Part shown: piece by piece, positions 14,723 to 26,870 of the stretch
How the letters are laid out: every line of letters starts with the position of its first letter
Position numbering within the stretch: the stretch's first letter is position 1
Notes under the pieces: model-generated
Databases searched by the model: none
Told to the model about the DNA's origin: nothing
Seen by the model: only the letters and a program-made list of their open reading frames with translations
Made by a program: the position numbers and the translations under genes
From: a virus
Direction: 5' to 3' (one strand)
Virus record (IMG/VR): IMGVR_UViG_3300029049_000006
Length of the DNA: 64,000 bases

Positions 14723-17206
14723 ATGGCATTACGGCGAGTACAAAGAGGGGAACCCTTACGTATTGGACAGATTAACCAGTACGCCGAACTTCTCGGGCAG
14801 ATGGCCGGAGGCGGAAAGCTCTTCCGGGCCAACAGGACCGGCTACCAGATGGACCGGGACCTGAACCCCCTGTTCCCATTTGAGCTGATGGCCCTGGATG
14901 CCCAGTCAAGCACCGGGGAAGCTACAAAAGGCGTGCCGCTGGCGAAATCCAAGGATTTAATCGCGTTTCTCCACCCCGGTTCCGTCACGTTTATCGGACT
15001 GGACGGCGCGGCCTCGCAGGTGTTCCCGGTTATCAAAGACCCGAAATACGCCCCTACGGATTCCCCCGGCGGAGGAAACGAAGATGGAGCCGCCGTCAAT
15101 ACCTGGCCCCGCCCCGGTATTCAAATTGAGCTTGATACGGTATATGGCATCCACCTGTTCGCCAAATTAGAGCGGGTGACGATGCAGATAGGCCGTGACC
15201 GGATAATTCAGGTGTCGGTCAAGAAATGGTGTCGTGACCGCACCCCATTCATCGGCACGGAGGACGAAATGGACAGCTCCGCTTCGGATGATGAAGACAT
15301 TATCCGGACGTTCATTCCATTGTTCCGGCCCATTGAAGACAGCGCAATCGAAGGAAACGTTTATGTGGAAAACCTGCATGAAAGCGATTTGATTCTTCCG
15401 GACATTCCGCTTGAGGGCGGATCGTCGTCTTCCTCGGCATCCTCTTCATCCAGCAGCTCCAGTAGTTCGAGCGGCGGGGTATCGTTCAGCAGTTCAAGCA
15501 GCTCATCATCAAAATCAGAGGGTTCGGAATCCGCATCTTTTTCCTCGTCTTCGTCGTCAGTAGGACCCTACATTGACCCTACACTGATTTCCGTGCCGGC
15601 GCGGGAACCCAATTCGGAATTCGGCGGCATCTACCGCACTCTGAAAGGCTTTAATTTCCCGCCCAGCGACGACAAGCCGGGCATGGCCTACATTATCATT
15701 TTCAGCCCTGTCGAATCTTGCGACTGGGTAAACTTTTCCACAGCCGGATTGGTGGAAACCAAAACGGACAAGCAATGGGAAGGCTACGTCGCCATTGACG
15801 ACAACGGGAATTGGGATTGCAATGTCATCATTGACGAATTCACCGACCCGGAACATACCGGCGTCCACCGCTACAAAGATTTCAAAGTTGGCTACCGGGC
15901 TAAAAAGCAGAACATAGCCGTCGATATTCTCATTGTTGACCAGGCGCCCCCGGAAGTGTCCTCTTCCTCGTCTTCGTCGTCTGTGAGTTCATCTTCGGAA
16001 GAAAAGTATTATTTCCGGTTTGTCCCTAATAAAATTACGGTGGACAGCCAATTTCAGAAAGTACAGGGCTATATCCGCACCGACTCCCCCTACGGGTGGA
16101 AAATCCCAGAGGACTTTCCGGCGCAGTTCCCTTCCGGGAAATGGGTATCTATTTCCCCGCTGACCGGGAAAGACCACGATAATTTTGAGGTTACGTTCCA
16201 GAAAAACGAGGAAGGGACCACCCGCGATAATCTGGTAACAGGGTACGCATTGACCTCGCGCGGCACATTGATGCTGGAAGCAACCGACACCCTGAATGTC
16301 ACCCAGACCCCGGAAGCCTCTTTATCCAGCAGTTCAAGCAGTTCGAGCAGTTCCTCTTCATCTTCATCATCTTCATCATCTTCCTCTTCCTCTTCCGGCT
16401 CGTCAAGTTCGTCCCAGGCGGACTGGTTTGAAGTGTTCCCTACTTCTATGGCCTTTGGCGCGGACGGCAAGCCAAAAGATTCTAACAAGGTAAGGCTTCG
16501 CGGAACGGTCGGATGGCAGGCTGATACGCAAAAAGACTGGTGTTCCATGTCCCCGTCATCCGGCTCAGCGCCAGGGGATGCAGGGACAGAAGCCGTGATA
16601 ACCTGCCAACCGAACAAGGAGGTCAACGGAAGAAGCACACTGGTTGAAATTAGCGTCACCCTGAATGGGTCGCCGCAATATTACTACGTCAATGTCATCC
16701 AGGAAGGCAATCCTCCTGTTCCTTCGTCGGAAAGCGAATCTTCCTCATCCTCGGAAGCCTCTTCGGGAGCCAGTTCGGCTTCATCAAGCAAAACCGCCAT
16801 TTTGCCGGTGCGCGGAAAGTTCCTCGGAATGATGTGCATGGAATCCCCGGAAACCTGGTTTGTCGACTTCGCCACCATTCACCTTCCGCTTGGGCTGATG
16901 CTGGTTGACCAGACGTTCATTGATGTTACCGAGCCGGGTTCCATAGCGGTTGTGTCCGCCATAGATGACCGGGGCCGCCCCGCAAGAGCATGGCTGCGGC
17001 TGGAAGGCAGGGAAAAGAAATATCTGACCTTGTATGCCCGTCCGCAGGGGTTGGGCCGGATATTCAGGCCGGACCGCATTACCGTCCAACTGATAGGGAG
17101 ACGCCTCGGACACCGGAGCAGGTTCCCGGAATTTTCAGAAGCGCAGTTCCGGGCGAACGAAGCGTTCTATGCCCAGGCGCACAGGGAGGAACCCCCGGAA
17201 GAGTAA
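14723..17206 (+). CDS. tail fiber / tail tip protein with poly-Ser linkers
   Basis: 827 aa; three long Ser tracts (nt ~15421-15565, 16315-16415, 16735-16800) separating globular domains; position after TMP/Dit. Confidence 0.5.
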   Translation: MALRRVQRGEPLRIGQINQYAELLGQMAGGGKLFRANRTGYQMDRDLNPLFPFELMALDAQSSTGEATKGVPLAKSKDLIAFLHPGSVTFIGLDGAASQVFPVIKDPKYAPTDSPGGGNEDGAAVNTWPRPGIQIELDTVYGIHLFAKLERVTMQIGRDRIIQVSVKKWCRDRTPFIGTEDEMDSSASDDEDIIRTFIPLFRPIEDSAIEGNVYVENLHESDLILPDIPLEGGSSSSSASSSSSSSSSSSGGVSFSSSSSSSSKSEGSESASFSSSSSSVGPYIDPTLISVPAREPNSEFGGIYRTLKGFNFPPSDDKPGMAYIIIFSPVESCDWVNFSTAGLVETKTDKQWEGYVAIDDNGNWDCNVIIDEFTDPEHTGVHRYKDFKVGYRAKKQNIAVDILIVDQAPPEVSSSSSSSSVSSSSEEKYYFRFVPNKITVDSQFQKVQGYIRTDSPYGWKIPEDFPAQFPSGKWVSISPLTGKDHDNFEVTFQKNEEGTTRDNLVTGYALTSRGTLMLEATDTLNVTQTPEASLSSSSSSSSSSSSSSSSSSSSSSSSGSSSSSQADWFEVFPTSMAFGADGKPKDSNKVRLRGTVGWQADTQKDWCSMSPSSGSAPGDAGTEAVITCQPNKEVNGRSTLVEISVTLNGSPQYYYVNVIQEGNPPVPSSESESSSSSEASSGASSASSSKTAILPVRGKFLGMMCMESPETWFVDFATIHLPLGLMLVDQTFIDVTEPGSIAVVSAIDDRGRPARAWLRLEGREKKYLTLYARPQGLGRIFRPDRITVQLIGRRLGHRSRFPEFSEAQFRANEAFYAQAHREEPPEE

Positions 17207-17234: not shown

Positions 17235-17603
17235 CTATGCCCATATAACATTCCCCAGCCGGGAAATATCCACCGCCTTTTTCCCGGCGCGCACAGCCGC
17301 CCTCAGTTCCCCGTAGTTTCTGCGGATTTCATGCGTTACCGGGTAATCCCGGAACACGTTGATATAATTCAGCCACCGTTCCTTTTGCGTGTACACCGCC
17401 GAATCTTTTATTATGTAGATTGTTGCGCTTTCGTCAATTTTCCTGTCCGGGATGCACGTGCAGCAATACCACTGATACCACTCATGGATGAGGTACACCG
17501 TATTAAAGCCGCGCAGGGTCATGACAGCCGTATCGGCGATATATTTGGGGGCCAGATTAAAAAGCTGCTCTTTGGTCAGTTCAATTTTCTTTGGTGCTTT
17601 CAT
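17235..17603 (-). CDS. hypothetical protein (only minus-strand gene; moron-like)
   Basis: 122-aa protein-like ORF; reverse-complement upstream carries TCTTGCAATT ... TATGATAA promoter copy and shares palindrome 17675-17695; + strand frames here look non-coding. Confidence 0.5.
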   Translation of the reverse strand: MKAPKKIELTKEQLFNLAPKYIADTAVMTLRGFNTVYLIHEWYQWYCCTCIPDRKIDESATIYIIKDSAVYTQKERWLNYINVFRDYPVTHEIRRNYGELRAAVRAGKKAVDISRLGNVIWA

Positions 17604-17674
17604 TGTATCTTGATGCCCTTATCATAGCTATCTTTTTAAAAATTGCAAGAGAAAAATACACATTCCACGAGAAA

Positions 17675-17695
17675 AATTTGCAATCATTGCAAATT
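17675..17695. promoter_or_regulatory. 21-bp palindrome copy between divergent genes
   Basis: AATTTGCAATCATTGCAAATT. Confidence 0.8.
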
Positions 17696-17746
17696 TCAGA
17701 AATCAATGTTGCCCATGAAAATTCAGGCGGCTATAGTGTCAAAGAC

Positions 17747-18799
17747 ATGATAACCTTAAACCATCTCGGAATATCCCACGCGGTCATCATTGCCCTGCCG
17801 GAACGTGCCGAACATGTTTCCCGGCTGAAAAACTCCATGATTGACGGAGGCATCGACCCGGAAAGCGGCGTTACCATACTCCCTGCCTGGAACGGTCGTG
17901 AGCTGCACCCCCCGAAAAGCTGGAAGGGGACCCGTGGCGCATGGGGCTGCGTACAGTCCCACATCCGGGCCTTGCGGCTCGCAGTCAAAAACAATTGGGA
18001 ATCAGTGCTCATTTTGGAGGACGACGCCATATTTTGCCGCAATGCCGCCGTCAGACTGCAAACGTTGTTTGCCGCTCTGCCGAAAGACTGGCGGTTGCTC
18101 TACCTCGGAGGCCACCACCAAAACTGGCCGAAAGAAGTCCACGCGGATTACATTTTGGCTTCCGGCATGACGGCCACCCACGCCTACATCGTCAAACGGG
18201 AATCCGTGCCCTGGCTTATCAAGCACATCGCCTATTATCCCGACTACGAACAACAGCAATGGGGCGTTGACCAGCAAATCCGGAACGCCGTCTATCGGGG
18301 CGACATCCTCCAATACGCCCCGCGCTGGAATATTGTAGGGCAACAGCGTCAGGAGTACAGCACCATTGCCCATTCCAGAGCCGGAAACCGGGAACGCTGG
18401 TGGGAGCATTCGCAAAACGACCAGTTCCGCCTGCTTCCGCTCGTACTTCTCCAAGAGCCGTTAACCGTGGAAGACGTTGACGGGCTTGAGGAACTGGTGG
18501 ACATCGCCCCGGAAAAAAGCGTTGAATCCCTTCTGGAAAAAACGGAAGACATGGCCGGCGCCATCATTGAAGCACTTTCCTACAGCGCACGGGGAGCGTT
18601 CAGCCACCGGCGCGTTCCCGCCCTGTATTACAGCGACCGGAAAGCTGCGGACAGATGCGCCCGCCTGTGGTCTGCGGAATGCCTGTTTGCCGAAGCCGGT
18701 GATTCCGACCAAACCAGGGAACTTCTCGTTACCGCCCTGCGCCGCGTTGTCGATTATGCGGAAAACCCGGATATGAACCCGGACATGGGCGAAAACTAA
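17747..18799 (+). CDS. glycosyltransferase family 25 (Lic2A/LgtB-like) with ~130-aa C-terminal extension
   Basis: HAVIIALPERAEHVSRL N-terminus; KGTRGAWGCVQSHIRALRLAV and LILEDDAIF match GT25 GEiGC.lSH / lEDD signatures. Confidence 0.7.
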   Translation: MITLNHLGISHAVIIALPERAEHVSRLKNSMIDGGIDPESGVTILPAWNGRELHPPKSWKGTRGAWGCVQSHIRALRLAVKNNWESVLILEDDAIFCRNAAVRLQTLFAALPKDWRLLYLGGHHQNWPKEVHADYILASGMTATHAYIVKRESVPWLIKHIAYYPDYEQQQWGVDQQIRNAVYRGDILQYAPRWNIVGQQRQEYSTIAHSRAGNRERWWEHSQNDQFRLLPLVLLQEPLTVEDVDGLEELVDIAPEKSVESLLEKTEDMAGAIIEALSYSARGAFSHRRVPALYYSDRKAADRCARLWSAECLFAEAGDSDQTRELLVTALRRVVDYAENPDMNPDMGEN

Positions 18800-18821
18800 T
18801 TCTTTTTCCACGCACATTACT

Positions 18822-19862
18822 ATGGATTATTTATTTCCGCATTATTTTGACCGTATTGTCGTCATCAATCTCGCCAAAAACCCCGAACGGTTCACCCGCA
18901 TTGCCGACGAGCTGAAACATAAGTGCCTGGCCGGGCCGGATGATATTGTCAGGCATGAAGCCGTGCATGGGGATTCCATGCCGCACCCGGCATGGTACAG
19001 GGCCGGAAACGGAGCATGGGGGTGCTTGTCCAGCCACATTGAGGCGCTGGAAGATGCCTGGAACACCGGAAGCGAACATACTCTGATTATTGAGGATGAC
19101 ACCGTATTCGCCGACGACCTTTTGACACGGTTCCCGGAAATCATGAAAGAAGTTCCGAAGGAATACGGGCAGTTGTATCTTGGAGGCCAGCACCAACAGG
19201 CCCCGGAAGCCCTGTCTGACACGTTGTGGCGCGGCACGTCCATCAACCGGACGCACTGCTACGCCGTCACCCGGAAATTCATTCCGGAAATCCTCGCCCA
19301 TATCATGGACTGGGACACCCACATCAAGGCTGCGGGAAACCCGCTCCATATCGACCACACGCTGGAAATCGGACACCAGCGCCGGTACTGGCCCGTGTTC
19401 TGCCCCCGGTTCTGGTTCGCGGGACAGGGAGAAAACCAGTCCGACATCAACGGCAGGCCGCAGCGGGAAATGTGGTGGGAATACTCCGTGAAACAACAGC
19501 ACCTGGAACTTCCCCTGCTTGTGCTACGGACCGTTGACACGCCAAAACATATTAAAGGCCTTGTGTTTGCCGGTTGGCCGACAGATTTAGACGCCCGTGG
19601 CGTGAATAAAAAGATTGAGGATGCCAAAAAAGACAAGGCCACTCTGCTTCGGGAAATAAGCTGGCTGGCTTACGTGGGATTCCAGCACCACAGCCTTCCG
19701 GCGGTGTATCTTCCGGAGCCGGAACCTATCAGCGAGCTGCAACGCCTGTGGTCCGGGGAAGTCGTTGACACAGCCCGCATGGATGACGCGGACATTCACC
19801 GGATGCACCGCATTCTGGAATTCGCCAGCAACCCGGAGATGCTAAAGTATAGGTTCCGATAG
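18822..19862 (+). CDS. glycosyltransferase family 25, paralog 2
   Basis: RIVVINLAKNPERF, GNGAWGCLSSHIEALEDAW, LIIEDDTVF; paralogous to 17747..18799. Confidence 0.7.
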   Translation: MDYLFPHYFDRIVVINLAKNPERFTRIADELKHKCLAGPDDIVRHEAVHGDSMPHPAWYRAGNGAWGCLSSHIEALEDAWNTGSEHTLIIEDDTVFADDLLTRFPEIMKEVPKEYGQLYLGGQHQQAPEALSDTLWRGTSINRTHCYAVTRKFIPEILAHIMDWDTHIKAAGNPLHIDHTLEIGHQRRYWPVFCPRFWFAGQGENQSDINGRPQREMWWEYSVKQQHLELPLLVLRTVDTPKHIKGLVFAGWPTDLDARGVNKKIEDAKKDKATLLREISWLAYVGFQHHSLPAVYLPEPEPISELQRLWSGEVVDTARMDDADIHRMHRILEFASNPEMLKYRFR

Positions 19863-22548: not shown

Positions 22549-25047
22549 ATGACATCACAAGAAAAATACATTCAAAAATTGGACGACATGTTCGCCAGCG
22601 CGGTGAGTGTCGTATTTACGCCAAGCCGTGAACCGCGCAGAACTGTAGAGGCTGTCAAGGCAATGGGGGCGCGGGACAATGTGCCGGTGTTCGTCTGGAA
22701 CGATGTGTACGGCTGGAAAGTCTTTACCGGACAGGACCGCACCGTAGGAGTCCCGGTTGACGCGGATTCCCCGGTAGGCAATTTTTATCAGGCGTTGCGC
22801 CGCATCCTGGGATTTAAAATCGGGGAAAACACCAGTAACGCGTCTTCCCGATTTGATTATGAAAAAGGCGCGGCGTATATCGTCATGGAGGGCACTAGCC
22901 CGCATCTTGGTTTGCTTCCAATGACGACAACTCTTCTCAAGGATTACGCCTATTCCTTCCCGGAAACGCTCATGAGCCTTGTGTTGATTACGTCGGAATC
23001 CTACACCATTCCGGAAGAGCTGGCCCACGACATTCTGGTTGTGGATTTTGACCTGCCGACAAAAACCGACTTGCGCCATGCATGGGAAAGCACCGTAGCT
23101 AATCAGTATGAGTCCAAGAACCTTCCGATTCCCGAAACCTATATTCCGGGGGACAGTGTGGATGCGCTTGTCAACGCGGCATCCGGCATGACGATTCTGG
23201 AAGCGGAAACTGCGTATTCAAGGGCTTTCACCCTTAATGACCGCCTGTTCCCGGATATTCCCGTTGAGAACCTTCTCGCGCAGGTACACCGCTCAAAGGA
23301 AGACATTGTGAAAAAGTCGCAGACGCTGGAAATGGTTAACCCCATTCCGGTTGATTCCATTGGCGGCCTGGAATTGCTGAAAGACTGGTTTATCACGCGG
23401 TCGGTATGTTTCAGCGAAGAGGCCCGCAAGGCGAAAGTTGATGCGCCTAAAGGCGTAGCCCTTATCGGGCCGCCTGGATGTATTGCCGCGCATACTGTCC
23501 TGCGTTACCGCCGTGGGAAGCGCAACAGCTCCCGTCAGATTACTGCGGAACGCCTGTATGCGAGATTCAACGGCCTTGAGGCGAATCCGGCGTGGTCATG
23601 GGACAATCAGCAGACTTACCTGCATTCTTACGACGTGAATACGGGCCGTGTCATGTACAACCGGGTTGAGGCCGTTACCGACGCCGGAGAAAAAGAATGT
23701 CTCCGCATCACGCTGTCCGACGGCTCAAGCTTTACTGCGTCCAGGAAGCACCCTGTATTGACCCCGGAAGGGTTTAAGCCGTTGCAGGAGATAGCCGCCG
23801 GTGATACGGTCCTGTCAAAAACAGATTTGCGTCCACGCAGGGCAGGCAAAAAAGCGGAGCGTCCGGAGCGGAAAACGGTCGAAGGCCTGAAATACTACTC
23901 TTCCGGGTGGAGGCACGCCGCCAACGGATGCGAGTACCGCAGGCAGCACCGCTCCCGGCTGGTCGTCGAGGCGTCGATGAACCGTCTGGACTACGATGAA
24001 TTCGTGCGTCGCCTTAAAACGGACCCGTCGGCATTGTGCCTTAAAGTGCTTGGACGTGAATACGACGTGCACCACATTGACGGGAATCCCATGAATGACC
24101 GCCTGGATAATCTACTGGTCATCCACAGAGCTGACCACAAAACTTTACACCACCATTCAGGTCAGGATAAATTCAACATCCAGTTCACAAAATCATTGCA
24201 GGTTGTCGCTGTCGAGGACGCCGGGGTTCAGCATTGCTTTGACATCCAAATGGCCCAGCCGTTCGACAATTTTTGCGTCGAATCCGGGCTCATTGTGCAT
24301 AATACGGGTAAGTCGGTATGCTCCAAGGCGGTGGCATCCATTCTCAATCTTCCCCTCGTGCGGGTGGATTTGGGGCGGCTGTTCGGGTCTCTCGTCGGCC
24401 AGACGGAAGCCCGTACCCGCACCATGTTGAAGGAATTGGAAGCTATGGCCCCCTGCATTGTCTGGGTGGATGAAGTTGACAAGGCGGGCCTGTCTTCCGG
24501 GGCTAATGGAGATTCCGGCGTATCTTCCCGCCTGCTGGGTTCTCTGCTGACCCACATGTCGGAAAACGAGTCCGGTTTGTTCTGGATTTTCACCGCCAAC
24601 CGGACGGAAAACCTTCCGTCGGAATTCTTGCGGAAGGGGCGGCTGGATGAAGTCTTTTCCGTCCTGCCTCCGACTTGGGCTGAACGCCGCCAGATTTTCG
24701 ATATCCACTTGAGCAAGCGCGGAATCAATATTGATGATATTGTTGACTTTGACCAGGTGCTGACGGAAAGCCGGGGATTCGTGTCTGCGGAAATTGAAGC
24801 CGCGTGCAAGGAAGCGAAAGTGCTTTCTTTTTATCGGAACGTTCCGGTTACGAGCAGCCTTTTGCGGTCCACCCTTAAAGGCATCATTCCAATTTCGGAA
24901 GCGTACAAAGACCAGTTTGACGCTATGACCGAGTGGGCGCAGAATAACGCGAGGCCGTCTTCCGAGCAAGAGGTTGACGTTGATGCTTCCAGCCCGCTTC
25001 CGTCCAGCATTCCGGAATCGTTGCGTGCCCGCCGCCGCAGGCATTGA
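22549..25047 (+). CDS. AAA+ ATPase interrupted by an intein (557-aa host protein plus 275-aa intein)
   Basis: Walker A split GVALIGPPG|C...HN|TGKS; downstream Walker B IVWVDEVDKA and AAA+ sensor region; N-terminal ~300 aa of unknown function. Confidence 0.7.
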   Translation: MTSQEKYIQKLDDMFASAVSVVFTPSREPRRTVEAVKAMGARDNVPVFVWNDVYGWKVFTGQDRTVGVPVDADSPVGNFYQALRRILGFKIGENTSNASSRFDYEKGAAYIVMEGTSPHLGLLPMTTTLLKDYAYSFPETLMSLVLITSESYTIPEELAHDILVVDFDLPTKTDLRHAWESTVANQYESKNLPIPETYIPGDSVDALVNAASGMTILEAETAYSRAFTLNDRLFPDIPVENLLAQVHRSKEDIVKKSQTLEMVNPIPVDSIGGLELLKDWFITRSVCFSEEARKAKVDAPKGVALIGPPGCIAAHTVLRYRRGKRNSSRQITAERLYARFNGLEANPAWSWDNQQTYLHSYDVNTGRVMYNRVEAVTDAGEKECLRITLSDGSSFTASRKHPVLTPEGFKPLQEIAAGDTVLSKTDLRPRRAGKKAERPERKTVEGLKYYSSGWRHAANGCEYRRQHRSRLVVEASMNRLDYDEFVRRLKTDPSALCLKVLGREYDVHHIDGNPMNDRLDNLLVIHRADHKTLHHHSGQDKFNIQFTKSLQVVAVEDAGVQHCFDIQMAQPFDNFCVESGLIVHNTGKSVCSKAVASILNLPLVRVDLGRLFGSLVGQTEARTRTMLKELEAMAPCIVWVDEVDKAGLSSGANGDSGVSSRLLGSLLTHMSENESGLFWIFTANRTENLPSEFLRKGRLDEVFSVLPPTWAERRQIFDIHLSKRGINIDDIVDFDQVLTESRGFVSAEIEAACKEAKVLSFYRNVPVTSSLLRSTLKGIIPISEAYKDQFDAMTEWAQNNARPSSEQEVDVDASSPLPSSIPESLRARRRRH
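23479..24303 (+). mobile_element. intein with HNH homing-endonuclease domain inserted in the P-loop
   Basis: Starts Cys (TGT 23479), ends ...GLIVHN (AAT 24301-24303) followed by Thr+1; block B TASRKHPVLT; block F/G HCFDIQMAQPFDNFCVESGLIVHN; HNH motif EYDVHHIDGNPMNDRLDNLLVIHRADHKTLHHH; excision restores GPPGTGKS. Confidence 0.7.
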
Positions 25048-25125: not shown

Positions 25126-25767
25126 ATGAGCAATGATTTAAGCACTCTTGATACCGTCACCGGGGAAATGCAGACGCTGGTGAATGGGTATGTTAAAGTG
25201 ATTTTATTCAAGGTTCAGCTTCCGGGGCCGGGAACGCTGTACAAGGAAGATGGCATTTTCCGCAACAACGTTCCGGGCGTAAATCGTATCGGGTTCCCTG
25301 GGTCTATCGCCTCCCTGCAAAATGGGAGGCCGGAAGTGTGCGGAACGGTTTTTTCCGGGAAGTACAGCCTGACCCCAGGTTCTTTCCTTAAAATTTTTGT
25401 CAAGGCGCATCGGCGCAGGTCATTCCCGGAATCGGCCAGCCTGTTCATCAGGATGCGCCCTTCGGCCGCCTTGCGGCGCATTACCGTTTCCTGCCCGGAA
25501 GACCCTAAAGCCACCATTTCCGAGTTCAGCATTACCGGACGCTTCGACCTGGTAAAACCCATTGAGGCCATTGCCGCCGGGTGTAGAATCCCTGAGCAGT
25601 TCAAGCTTGGGTACGCTCCCACAGTGGTAAACCGTTTGATGCGGTTTAGCGTTCTGTCTCCGGAAACAGCCACCCGGACCGTAGTCCGCACGGCTTCCGG
25701 GGAGGAAAAAGAAGTCATTGTCGCCAAGAGGCGGCGGCGTTTGGGCGGGGTACGTTCCCACTCCTGA
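25126..25767 (+). CDS. hypothetical protein
   Basis: 213-aa ORF. Confidence 0.4.
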   Translation: MSNDLSTLDTVTGEMQTLVNGYVKVILFKVQLPGPGTLYKEDGIFRNNVPGVNRIGFPGSIASLQNGRPEVCGTVFSGKYSLTPGSFLKIFVKAHRRRSFPESASLFIRMRPSAALRRITVSCPEDPKATISEFSITGRFDLVKPIEAIAAGCRIPEQFKLGYAPTVVNRLMRFSVLSPETATRTVVRTASGEEKEVIVAKRRRRLGGVRSHS

Positions 25768-25801
25768 AAAATCTCTCATTATTAACAATAAAAAATAAAC
25801 C

Positions 25802-26287
25802 ATGAGCCATACAACTAAAGTCAAATCCGTAGTCATCCGGGATGTCCGGGCTATCCGTGCCGCTGTGCAGGAACTCCAACGCGCGGGGCGAAAAATCGTC
25901 TTGAAGGAAAATGCTGTTCCCCGCATGTATTACAAAGACCAGTTCCAGAACAGCACCAAGCGTCAGACGGCGGAATACGTCATTGAGTGCCAGGGGATGT
26001 CCAACATTACCGGAAAACCGTGTGATGTGGGCCTTGTCAAGCAGGATGATGGAACGTTTGTGCCGTATCTTGATACGTGGGGAAACTACGTCAAAGAGCA
26101 TTGCGGAAACCCGAAACTTACTGCCAAAGATGGCCTTACGGAGTCGGATATTGCCATTGCGGCTTTCTCCCAGGCGTATTCCAAGCACGCGGCCATTTTC
26201 GCGGCAACTGACCAGGGCTACACCGTGCAGGACTGCTACCTTGATTCCGCGGGCAATGTGCAGTTGACCGTAGCCACCGGATTCTAA
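25802..26287 (+). CDS. hypothetical protein
   Basis: 161-aa ORF, A-rich leader AAAAAATAAACC ATG. Confidence 0.4.
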   Translation: MSHTTKVKSVVIRDVRAIRAAVQELQRAGRKIVLKENAVPRMYYKDQFQNSTKRQTAEYVIECQGMSNITGKPCDVGLVKQDDGTFVPYLDTWGNYVKEHCGNPKLTAKDGLTESDIAIAAFSQAYSKHAAIFAATDQGYTVQDCYLDSAGNVQLTVATGF

Positions 26288-26293
26288 GCCTGA

Positions 26294-26312
26294 AATTTGC
26301 AACGATTACAAA
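26294..26312. promoter_or_regulatory. degenerate palindrome copy (AATTTGCAACGATTACAAA)
   Basis: 3 mismatches to consensus. Confidence 0.4.
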
Positions 26313-26322
26313 AATCAACAAC

Positions 26323-26526
26323 ATGGAAACAATTCACATTACGATTGACCCGGCAGGCCGCCCGACTCTGAAAGGGGAAGGATTCACCGGCACAAAATGC
26401 AACGACCGCATGAAAGCTATCGAGGATAAGCTTGGAGCCGGAAAAGGAGCCACGCGGACTGACCACCAGGAAATGTACGCGCCGGAAGACACGACCAGCA
26501 CGGAGCAGCCCATTCATATGTGGTAA
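26323..26526 (+). CDS. hypothetical small protein
   Basis: 67-aa ORF. Confidence 0.35.
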   Translation: METIHITIDPAGRPTLKGEGFTGTKCNDRMKAIEDKLGAGKGATRTDHQEMYAPEDTTSTEQPIHMW

Positions 26527-26549
26527 AAAATCAGCCCCCCCTTATTATC

Positions 26550-26870
26550 ATGAGCCAGCAAATCACTATCTATCCGGACGGCGGTATGGAATCGCTCAGG
26601 GTATCTTCCGGAAACGGGCTTGACCTGCGGATGTTCGGAACCGTGGAAGCCCGGCGTGTATCTGACATTGTTTTTGACGATGCGGCGCAGAAGTGGAAAA
26701 TTGACATACTTGGGCAAGGTCTATTGACCCTTTCCGAGTGGGCCAACGTGGCGAAGAAGCCTTTACCCTGCTTTGCACGTCTGGCGGCGGACGGCGTGAT
26801 TTTACTGGCGGAATATGAACAGGCGGTTGATGTCGAAGTGCAGTACTTTAACGCCCGGAGAGTCAAATGA
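26550..26870 (+). CDS. hypothetical protein
   Basis: ATG 26550 in frame of ORF 26520..26870. Confidence 0.35.
   Translation: MSQQITIYPDGGMESLRVSSGNGLDLRMFGTVEARRVSDIVFDDAAQKWKIDILGQGLLTLSEWANVAKKPLPCFARLAADGVILLAEYEQAVDVEVQYFNARRVK

Follow-up and report, generated by a model that had tools for sequence, protein, structure and literature searches.

We conclude with high confidence that an insert in an open reading frame of the 64,000-nt stretch of viral DNA analyzed here (the window; IMG/VR record IMGVR_UViG_3300029049_000006) is a genuine class-1 intein carrying a probable HNH homing endonuclease. It lies at Gly310/Thr, within Walker A (GPPG|TGKS), and its host protein is an AAA+ ATPase of the classic clade from an uncultured human-gut phage of ~85-90 kb. 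The pattern of the insert is far beyond chance, as the spliced product is identical throughout to an intein-free protein, the gap in the DNA alignment is exact, and the matches in profile and fold searches are almost exclusively inteins. The insert is a real and fairly ordinary further example of a known element, and many near-identical phages are without it. The coordinates of all features are given in Table 1.

Table 1. Features of the intein-containing ATPase gene and its surroundings in the window.
Feature	Position	Strand	Remarks
Precursor gene, AAA+ ATPase split by intein	22549..25047	+	From the open reading frame list; 832 aa plus stop
N-extein, 310 aa, ends ...GVALIGPPG	22549..23478	+	GPPG (first half of Walker A) at 23467-23478; matches phrog_8638 in two stretches parted by the insert
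Presumed homing site, halves CTTATCGGGCCGCCTGGA (left) / ACGGGTAAGTCGGTATGC (right)	23461..23478 / 24304-24321	.	Contiguous in intein-free alleles; putative recognition and cleavage
Intein, class 1, nested HNH endonuclease, 275 aa	23479..24303	+	825 nt; precursor residues 311-585
Block A, CIAAHTVL	23479..23502	+	Cys1 first; kept in 115/115 full-length relatives
Block B core, S88-R-K-H91	23740..23751	+	From alignments; Ser replaces Thr of canonical T-x-x-H
Inserted domain, residues ~116-236, separating the HINT-fold halves (N and C)	23824..24186	+	Basic linker, conserved VEGLKYYSSGW / YRRQHRSRLVVEASMN region, HNH motif
HNH motif DVHHIDGNPMNDRLDNLLVIHRADHKTLH	24064..24150	+	H198, H199, D207, N211, H220, H224
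Block F, CFDIQM	24235..24252	+	Invariant Asp255; alignment of relatives
Block G, GLIVHN	24286..24303	+	Penultimate His274, terminal Asn275; HN in 111/115 relatives
C-extein, 247 aa plus stop	24304..25047	+	Thr+1 codon ACG 24304-24306; TGKS 24304-24315 (ACG GGT AAG TCG)
C-extein motifs	24457-24480; 24625-24651	+	Walker B IVWVDEVD; FLRKGRLDE arginine-finger region
Four genes downstream of the ATPase, conserved cassette	25126..26870	+	213 aa, 161 aa (weak DUF1257), 67 aa (DUF2997), 116 aa

The boundaries of the in-frame insert proposed in the earlier note were exact to the nucleotide, with the Cys1 codon TGT (23479-23481) immediately past ...GVALIGPPG and the codons CAT AAT for His-Asn (24298-24303) directly ahead of TGKS. 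When the insert was taken out in silico, a protein of 557 aa with the contiguous GPPGTGKS predicted there was obtained, and this protein was 100% identical to a 557-aa protein (P0001) found on 407 metagenome contigs. The best 120 matches listed for the spliced protein were all 557 aa long and contained GPPGTGK. The exact precursor protein, deposited as GenBank DAY52486.1 ('MAG TPA: Ycf46 [Caudoviricetes sp.]'), was found on 224 contigs. Nineteen intein-free alleles lacked exactly 825 nt, and in every one the gap in the DNA alignment coincided with 23479..24303. The exact precursor was listed in 341 index blocks and P0001 in 592; therefore, intein-plus and intein-minus alleles are both common, on syntenic contigs of 78-90 kb. 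Intein-free homologues with contiguous GPPGTGKS, on which the earlier reading depended, were thus abundant in the same phage species and were also present in cultured phages (Rhizobium phage L338C). Scanning IMG/VR with the extein gave only 4 loci, and a DNA-pattern scan of metagenomes gave only 3, all intein-free, both samples being too small for an allele-frequency estimate. A homologous-protein search with the intein alone returned only 4 matches, with the precursor absent among them. In a megablast search, none of 50,697 phage records matched the gene, which has no cultured relative at the DNA level among them; genome-contig scans with the intein or with the extein found no host or prophage.

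The host protein was correctly described as a 557-aa AAA+ ATPase, with Walker A, Walker B and the arginine-finger region all located. The Pfam AAA profile (PF00004) scored 82.7 bits on the precursor, where the match starts past the insert and not before profile position 8, vs 99.1 bits over profile positions 2-127 on the spliced protein; the AAA_lid_3 match to the spliced protein was below the cut-off, and phrog_8638 matched the ATPase at E=4e-120. The earlier statement that the ATPase heads the replication module was loosely worded. The ATPase opens a conserved cassette of five genes (AAA, 213 aa, DUF1257-like, DUF2997, 116 aa), which is flanked by a lysozyme-like gene on one side and by the RepO/DnaB/PolA genes on the other. 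DUF2997 was recognized at 29.1 bits (cut-off 24.1) and DUF1257 at only 14.5 bits. The label 'Ycf46' on DAY52486.1 is a MAG annotation, for which these two neighbouring genes are the sole supporting hint. An orthologue of the ATPase, 557 aa long and 40% identical over 537 residues, occurs in Rhizobium phage vB_RleS_L338C (AHC30467.1), where the uninterrupted ALIGPPGTGKS is followed by four small genes in the same order and of the same sizes; unlike the present protein, it is without an intein.

The motifs TASRKHPVLT, HCFDIQ and ESGLIVHN and the HNH motif named in the earlier note were all found in the insert, and the splicing residues C1, S88xxH91, D255, H274, N275 and T+1 were all present. The assignment of block B needed one correction, as its core reads S-x-x-H and not T-x-x-H as in relatives; Ser88 at position B:7 keeps the hydroxyl and His91 is in place, which represents a motif variant rather than a loss. 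Block A reads CIAAH, vs C-x-x-x-D-T in relatives. Profile searches likewise recognized an intein, with TIGR01445 (intein_Nterm) at 26.3 bits, above its cut-off of 24.5, and PF14890 (Intein_splicing) at E=1e-5, though its score of 25.8 was below the gathering score of 35.8. With the family profile against PDB sequences, inteins occupied 40 of the first 41 places, Pab PolC being first (5.6e-11) and Ssp DnaB (3.2e-9) being matched in both halves, and the best Foldseek match was the Ssp DnaB mini-intein (1.7e-7). The insert adopts the HINT fold. The HNH assignment agreed with matches to PHROG HNH endonuclease families (E=2.6e-7) and with the six HNH residues, unchanged in 12 relatives that are only 37-49% identical, while Pfam HNH_3 reached 24.4, marginally below its cut-off of 24.8. 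A structure model (pLDDT 65) placed a strand-strand-helix at residues 195-224, over the HNH motif, and the conserved region of the same inserted domain (VEGLKYYSSGW / YRRQHRSRLVVEASMN) may be the DNA-binding part.

Based on standard class-1 chemistry, from which we infer splicing activity, nuclease activity and target site, a plausible model can be proposed. The precursor would be translated with its P-loop broken, and the HINT domain would catalyze an N-S acyl shift at Cys1, after which the thioester would pass to the hydroxyl of Thr+1. Asn275 would then cyclize with the assistance of His274 and release the intein, and an O-N shift would leave a normal Gly-Thr peptide bond, so that the ATPase of 557 aa and the excised intein of 275 aa (~31 kDa) are obtained. 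A point against this model is that Thr+1 is generally held to be a weaker nucleophile than Cys. It is very improbable that the insert is instead a decayed, non-splicing intein that leaves the ATPase gene effectively inactivated in intein-plus phages. The off-consensus blocks A (CIAAH) and B (S-x-x-H), the PF14890 score below gathering and an ATPase that may be non-essential would be compatible with decay, but every nucleophile and assisting residue is intact, and near-complete phage contigs carrying the plus allele number in the hundreds. Purifying selection acts on the intein (dN/dS 0.05-0.10), and the exteins of two intein-plus alleles, that of the window (lineage A) and L022 (lineage B), differ with a dN/dS of 0.06-0.07. 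In addition, the spliced extein of a lineage-B intein-plus allele (P0133) showed 100% identity over 100% coverage with an intein-free protein (P0142), which also speaks against decay.

Relatives of the intein were numerous in metagenomes, where 118 representative clusters matched at E<=1e-30 and the clade had roughly 950 members at E<=1e-10. The insertion site was the Walker A position GxxG|[TSC]GK[STG] in 86 of 115 full-length relatives, whose +1 residue was Thr in 67, Cys in 27 and Ser in 21. Their hosts included AAA+ proteins, SF1 helicases, PIF1, DnaB, RecA and terminase, and PhoH hosts were found separately in IMG/VR contigs. At the DNA level, the related inteins in other ATPase genes sit at GGN CCN NNN GGN | ACN GGN AAR. 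Among 64 relatives from the clade, PF14890 was matched by 45 at E<=1e-5 (best 4.9e-21) and HNH_3 by 25 (best 4.6e-10). The nearest relative in a cultured phage, in the DnaE-like polymerase of Gordonia phage Wojtek, was only 24% identical. About three quarters of the relatives are located at GxxG|[TSC]GK[ST/G], in hosts from several ATPase superfamilies, which suggests that their ectopic spread is directed by the motif.

Two extein lineages, A and B, each hold intein-plus and intein-minus alleles. Between them, dS was 0.63-0.68 in the exteins and 0.126 in the intein, five times less, and the synonymous sites that differ numbered 22 of 189 in the intein vs 176 of 405 in the exteins (Fisher p=1.2e-15). 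The intein has therefore moved horizontally and precisely. B+ and B- exteins were near-identical up to the junction itself, and a single DNA haplotype of the intein, with 0-1 differences over its 825 nt, occurred in exteins differing at up to 37 sites, among seven intein-plus contigs that were fetched by exact protein identity and are thus biased towards one intein allele. The idea of a monomorphic intein and a very recent sweep, drawn from these seven contigs, was dropped, as allele L018, which was retrieved independently, carried 32 differences. Homing is the likely route of the horizontal movement. During co-infection, the HNH domain would cut or nick intein-free alleles at or near GGGCCGCCTGGA|ACGGGTAAGTCG, and repair off the intein-plus genome would copy the intein into the cut allele.

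Co-conversion tracts were sought as proof of homing, and none exceeded ~3-9 nt on either side, with lineage-B-specific synonymous variants remaining at -4/-10 and +6/+9 relative to the junction in B+ alleles; homing was neither proven nor excluded thereby. Within lineage A, one downstream haplotype was found in 6 of 7 plus and 3 of 8 minus alleles, a sample too small to be meaningful. The phage population is highly mosaic, as in an allele that joins an A-type N-extein and intein to a B-type distal C-extein (P0137), and in the absence of co-conversion tracts ordinary recombination could therefore have helped the spread. Taken further, splicing might be kept while the HNH nuclease is inactive, with ordinary homologous recombination of co-infecting phages accounting both for the presence/absence polymorphism and for the intein's passage from one lineage to the other. 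The short tracts, the polymorphisms shared by plus and minus alleles of this mosaic gene and the HNH_3 score marginally below the Pfam cut-off would fit such a process, which we nevertheless consider unlikely. With flanks that differ by 14%, recombination would need to be resolved only a few nucleotides away from each junction, and a break at the site fits better. The catalytic residues are invariant in the distant relatives, the HNH segment contained no nonsynonymous change against 3-4 synonymous changes among three alleles, and the clade's recurrence at this one Walker A position across unrelated ATPases needs site-specific activity.

With homing by an active nuclease as the favoured reading, a broader and tentative idea, for which we see some chance but which is probably not correct in full, is that the intein is one tip of a large HNH-intein clade, of which no description was found in the searchable literature. 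Its nuclease would read the near-universal Walker A coding sequence, allowing ectopic homing into the gene of any P-loop ATPase (AAA+, SF1/PIF1 helicase, PhoH, DnaB, RecA or terminase), and the intein would be an active invader held at intermediate frequency through transmission bias. If so, it would be a weapon between competing phage genomes during co-infection, in a prevalent gut phage.

A domesticated conditional switch, in which splicing and ATPase activity are gated by a cue such as redox state or temperature and the insert is kept for regulation and is not selfish, is the least probable of the readings considered and can hardly be credited. P-loop inteins are possibly retained for function (PMC4760082), conditional splicing is documented for the RadA P-loop intein (PMC4513877), and the splicing domain is under strong purifying selection. 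However, the presence and absence of the intein among otherwise near-identical phages indicates that it is dispensable, its conserved and retained HNH domain speaks for mobility, and no sensor was identified in the sequence, the sole and speculative candidate being Cys252 near block F.

None of these results changes the known workings of inteins. In deposits, the gene is labelled 'Ycf46' or 'Hint module' among MAG proteins, and gene callers and clustering split the 832-aa and 557-aa forms, though the mature ATPase would be the same for both. A natural system of homing dynamics is provided by the hundreds of human-gut phage genomes that are near-identical but either contain or lack the element, and that comprise two lineages of exteins and no fewer than three alleles of the intein; homing, co-conversion and loss could be measured there under natural conditions. 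Furthermore, the clade offers candidate compact HNH inteins with Thr, Ser or Cys at +1 for protein engineering.

The present intein can be compared with the known P-loop inteins (e.g. mycobacteriophage TerL1-a/b, DnaB-b, MCM-a, RFC-S-a and RadA; PMC5050341, PMC4760082), which are likewise in-frame HINT elements within Walker A, so that ATP binding needs splicing, and which likewise occur in phage and replication-associated proteins, spread horizontally and have intein-free alleles in near relatives. The earlier note had called P-loops classic intein homing sites; the P-loop insertion itself stands, but the 'classic' site is GK|T, between the invariant Lys and the next Thr/Ser (PMC5050341), and the present break at G|TGKS is three residues upstream. 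The idea that this is the site of the yeast VMA1 intein was considered and dropped, as it is probably wrong. With its break at GxxG|TGKS, the present intein has the Thr before Gly-Lys as its +1 nucleophile; it sits in a phage ATPase of the classic AAA+ clade (PF00004, 'Ycf46'-labelled) that is absent from the hosts of those surveys, and its endonuclease is HNH, whereas theirs are LAGLIDADG. The first report of in-frame HNH-endonuclease inteins is credited to Dalgaard et al. (1997) in PMC5050341 and bioRxiv 10.1101/2025.01.02.630785. In the 2025 survey of actinobacteriophages, LAGLIDADG endonucleases were found in 712 of 784 inteins and HNH inteins were rare, the non-canonical types being those of DNA polymerase, minor capsid, terminase and thymidylate synthase (bioRxiv 10.1101/2025.01.02.630785). 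The present intein resembles the in-frame HNH inteins in being phage-associated and in having its HNH domain inserted in frame so that it parts the N-terminal splicing half from the C-terminal one, but its clade is large in metagenomes and focused on Walker A. In contrast to phage HNH homing endonucleases of the I-TevIII-like and I-HmuI types, which are free-standing or intron-encoded, its nuclease resides in an intein, and protein splicing would set it free.

The phage AAA+ ATPase is interrupted by a genuine intein of class 1, within which an HNH endonuclease is nested. Codons read from the DNA bore out every detail that an earlier note had reported of the insert and its junctions, and the positions of the GPPG end and of the Cys, His-Asn and TGKS codons therefore delimit an insert of 825 nt, or 275 aa. 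Its deletion in silico left 557 aa with a contiguous GVALIGPPGTGKSVCSKA. In G+C content, the insert (55.0%) resembles the exteins (52.7% and 55.9%), and no second intein of the same family was found in the window, where it is single-copy.

Positions in the window of the precursor gene, the insert junctions and neighbouring genes
Feature	Position	Strand	Source
Precursor ORF, 832 aa	22549..25047	+	ORF list
GGG CCG CCT GGA (GPPG)	last nt 23478	+	DNA reading
Cys codon TGT	23479-23481	+	DNA reading
CAT AAT (His-Asn)	24298-24303	+	DNA reading
ACG GGT AAG TCG (TGKS)	24304-24315	+	DNA reading
Cassette with four small genes 3' of the ATPase: 213 aa; 161 aa, weak DUF1257; 67 aa, DUF2997 above cut-off; 116 aa	22549-26870
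827-aa ORF after the tape-measure gene	14723-17206
Two adjoining glycosyltransferase family 25 genes	17591-19862

The splicing residues C1, H91, D255, H274, N275 and Thr+1 (the first C-extein residue) were all found, with block B reading S88-R-K-H91 here and T-x-x-H in aligned relatives. The intein-model search proposed in the earlier note gave mixed results, yet all in the intein direction: TIGR01445 (intein N-terminal region) scored 26.3 against a cut-off of 24.5, whereas PF14890 (Intein_splicing; E=1e-5) remained under its gathering score. Against PDB sequences, phmmer matched only inteins, and with the 12-sequence family profile inteins took 40 of 41 first places, with Pab PolC at 5.6e-11 and Ssp DnaB at 3.2e-9, both halves matched. 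The HNH motif is supported by PHROG HNH endonuclease families (E=2.6e-7) and by H198, H199, D207, N211, H220 and H224, which are invariant across 12 relatives 36-49% identical to the intein; it is ~49% identical to that of I-TevIII-like endonucleases, and HNH_3 scored 24.4 (cut-off 24.8). The Pfam AAA match, 82.7 bits from profile position 8 with the insert, reached 99.1 bits over positions 2-127 without it. The intein is very probably splicing-competent.

Intein-minus relatives with a contiguous P-loop, sought at the suggestion of the same note, were found. The best 120 matches to the in-silico spliced protein are all 557 aa, 116 of them with VALIGPPGTGKSVCSK. One protein, P0001, which occurs on 407 contigs, matches the predicted splice product without a single difference. 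When intein-plus and intein-minus DNA was aligned, the gap was exactly 23479..24303 in every intein-free allele. The exact precursor is listed in 341 index blocks and P0001 in 592, and the contigs carrying them are syntenic, 72-90 kb long and from human-gut metagenomes. A copy of the exact precursor is deposited as DAY52486.1 ('MAG TPA: Ycf46 [Caudoviricetes sp.]'), and the 90% cluster of a sibling, UVX82810.1, labelled 'MAG: Hint module', has 242 members. Cultured-phage orthologues also lack the interruption, such as the AAA+ ATPase of Rhizobium phage L338C (557 aa, 40% identical, ALIGPPGTGKS).

The host protein is a classic-clade AAA+ protein with a strong PF00004 match; matches to CDC48, FtsH and PAN are confined to the AAA domain and lie far under the family cut-offs. 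It has an N-terminal region of ~300 aa and belongs to phrog_8638, a family with no known function. The ATPase and four-gene cassette recur with the same order and sizes in phage L338C (gp050-054; locus L029, 3947-7787). A lysozyme-like gene lies 5', and genes for a RepO-like protein, DnaB, PolA and RNase H lie 3'; this position makes the suggested role of the ATPase as head of the replication module plausible. The glycosyltransferase genes, whose Pfam matches come from the syntenic loci L001-L014, separate the tail genes from the lysis/ATPase region. The 827-aa ORF (~2180-4660 in L001-L014) has counterparts of 704, 798, 824-828 and 970 aa in otherwise syntenic contigs, and in L005 a shorter protein with a BACON domain takes its place. 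The ORF probably encodes a hypervariable tail fibre or receptor-binding protein. In one intein-plus contig (L003, 17226-20053), the family-A DNA polymerase, otherwise 942 aa, is in two ORFs of 553 and 373 aa, probably through a frameshift or assembly error and not another intein.

Three intein alleles were recovered: allele 1 in the window and L001-L006, allele 2 in L018 and allele 3 in L022/L023. From one allele to another, 23-33 of the 825 nt differ, with dN/dS of 0.05-0.10, and their HNH segments differ by 0 nonsynonymous versus 3-4 synonymous changes; therefore, the splicing and nuclease parts are both under purifying selection. The phage population contains two extein lineages, A (the window type, members <=2.3% apart) and B, whose DNA is 13.7-14.3% different, and each has intein-plus and intein-minus alleles (in B, L022/L023 and L024, respectively). 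The spliced B intein-plus protein matches the intein-free P0142 at 100% identity and 100% coverage. Between A and B, dS is 0.126 for the intein and 0.63-0.68 for the exteins (synonymous sites 22/189 and 176/405; Fisher p=1.2e-15), so the intein is much younger than the split of its host genes and has therefore moved horizontally. In lineage A, a single intein DNA haplotype (0-1 differences) occurs in exteins differing at up to 37 sites, among contigs picked by exact protein identity and thus biased towards one allele; the first impression of a monomorphic intein, drawn from that retrieval, was wrong.

The transfer between lineages was precise. B intein-plus alleles keep B-specific synonymous variants at -4/-10 and +6/+9 nt from the junctions, so that any co-conversion tract is at most ~3-9 nt. 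A tract this short is unusual for homing, and ordinary recombination is clearly frequent in this population: P0137 joins a lineage-A N-extein and intein allele 1 to a lineage-B distal C-extein (precursor residues 710-827), indicating recombination inside the ATPase gene. This leaves some room for spread partly by ordinary recombination, but with both ends within a few bases and flanks 14% divergent, a site-specific break fits better. We infer from these sequence patterns that the intein spread by homing, and it is probably still mobile. At window position 23475, 4 nt 5' of the intein, the third base of the GPPG Pro codon is polymorphic, with CCT in most lineage-A alleles and L023, CCA in L014, L018, L020 and L021, and CCC in L022 and L024; in L023, a B intein-plus allele, the A-like CCT may be left over from a co-conversion of 4-9 nt or may be coincidental.

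The intein belongs to a large clade whose members specialise in a single Walker A position in hosts from different ATPase superfamilies. Its closest relatives (36-49% identity) share that position (insertion point marked ^) in orthologous phage AAA+ ATPases (GPPG^TGKS; one ...HN^SGKS), PhoH proteins (GPAG or GPSG^TGKT; Pfam PhoH E<=2.1e-63) and one PIF1-like helicase (GAAG^TGKS), and the intein itself is about as similar to the PhoH copies (37-39% identity) as to inteins of distant AAA+ orthologues (38-44%). When 1.84 billion representatives were searched exhaustively with phmmer, there were 1805 matches at E<=1e-3, falling to 954 at E<=1e-10 and to 118 at E<=1e-30. Among the 115 full-length relatives in the best 150 matches, Cys1 is universal (115/115), 111 end in HN, and position +1 is occupied by T (67 relatives), C (27) or S (21); the insertion site is GxxG^[TSC]GK[STG] in 86, a variant P-loop in 14, G^CDN(R)(I/L)A in 9 and elsewhere in 6. 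The DNA target common to the clade is GGN CCN NNN GGN ^ ACN GGN AAR. Pfam analysis of 64 of the hosts found AAA in 34, SF1-helicase domains in ~15, PIF1 in 2, DnaB in 2, RecA in 1 and terminase in 1, with Intein_splicing matched in 45 and HNH_3 in 25 of the same 64. Cultured phages yielded a single full-length relative, an intein with 24% identity in the DnaE-like polymerase of Gordonia phage Wojtek, and a search of 185,579 species genomes gave no relative of intein or exteins.

The nine inteins at the non-P-loop G^CDN(R)(I/L)A site (P0241, P0261, P0265, P0267, P0276, P0280, P0284, P0288 and P0291) lie in host proteins of ~330-520 aa. Those of L030-L037 (IMG/VR; PhoH hosts and one AAA+ host) have T-x-x-D in block B instead of the usual T-x-x-H, which may alter splicing chemistry or kinetics. 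P0122 (388 aa, ENA) has a related intein in an AAA+-like host, with SFIVLDG as its end and CSGLCSD next, not IVHN^TGKS; either the C-terminal splice junction has decayed, or the short contig is truncated or frameshifted.

About 70% of inteins are held by ATP-binding proteins, and P-loop inteins are known in DnaB, MCM, RFC-S and phage TerL (PMC4760082, PMC5050341). The P-loop had been described beforehand as a classic intein site, which agrees with the textbook pattern, but the present intein lies three residues upstream of the 'classic' site, GK^T (PMC5050341). The first in-frame HNH inteins were reported in 1997, and a 2025 actinobacteriophage survey found HNH inteins rare and non-canonical, with LAGLIDADG in 712/784 inteins (bioRxiv 10.1101/2025.01.02.630785). 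In the limited literature collection searched, we found no published intein in this ATPase family and no published account of a Walker-A-focused HNH clade. The main interest lies at the population and clade level: a prevalent gut phage maintains alleles with and without the intein side by side, transfer between lineages was precise, and the Walker A clade is large; in kind, the intein is already known, and it is new as one more example.
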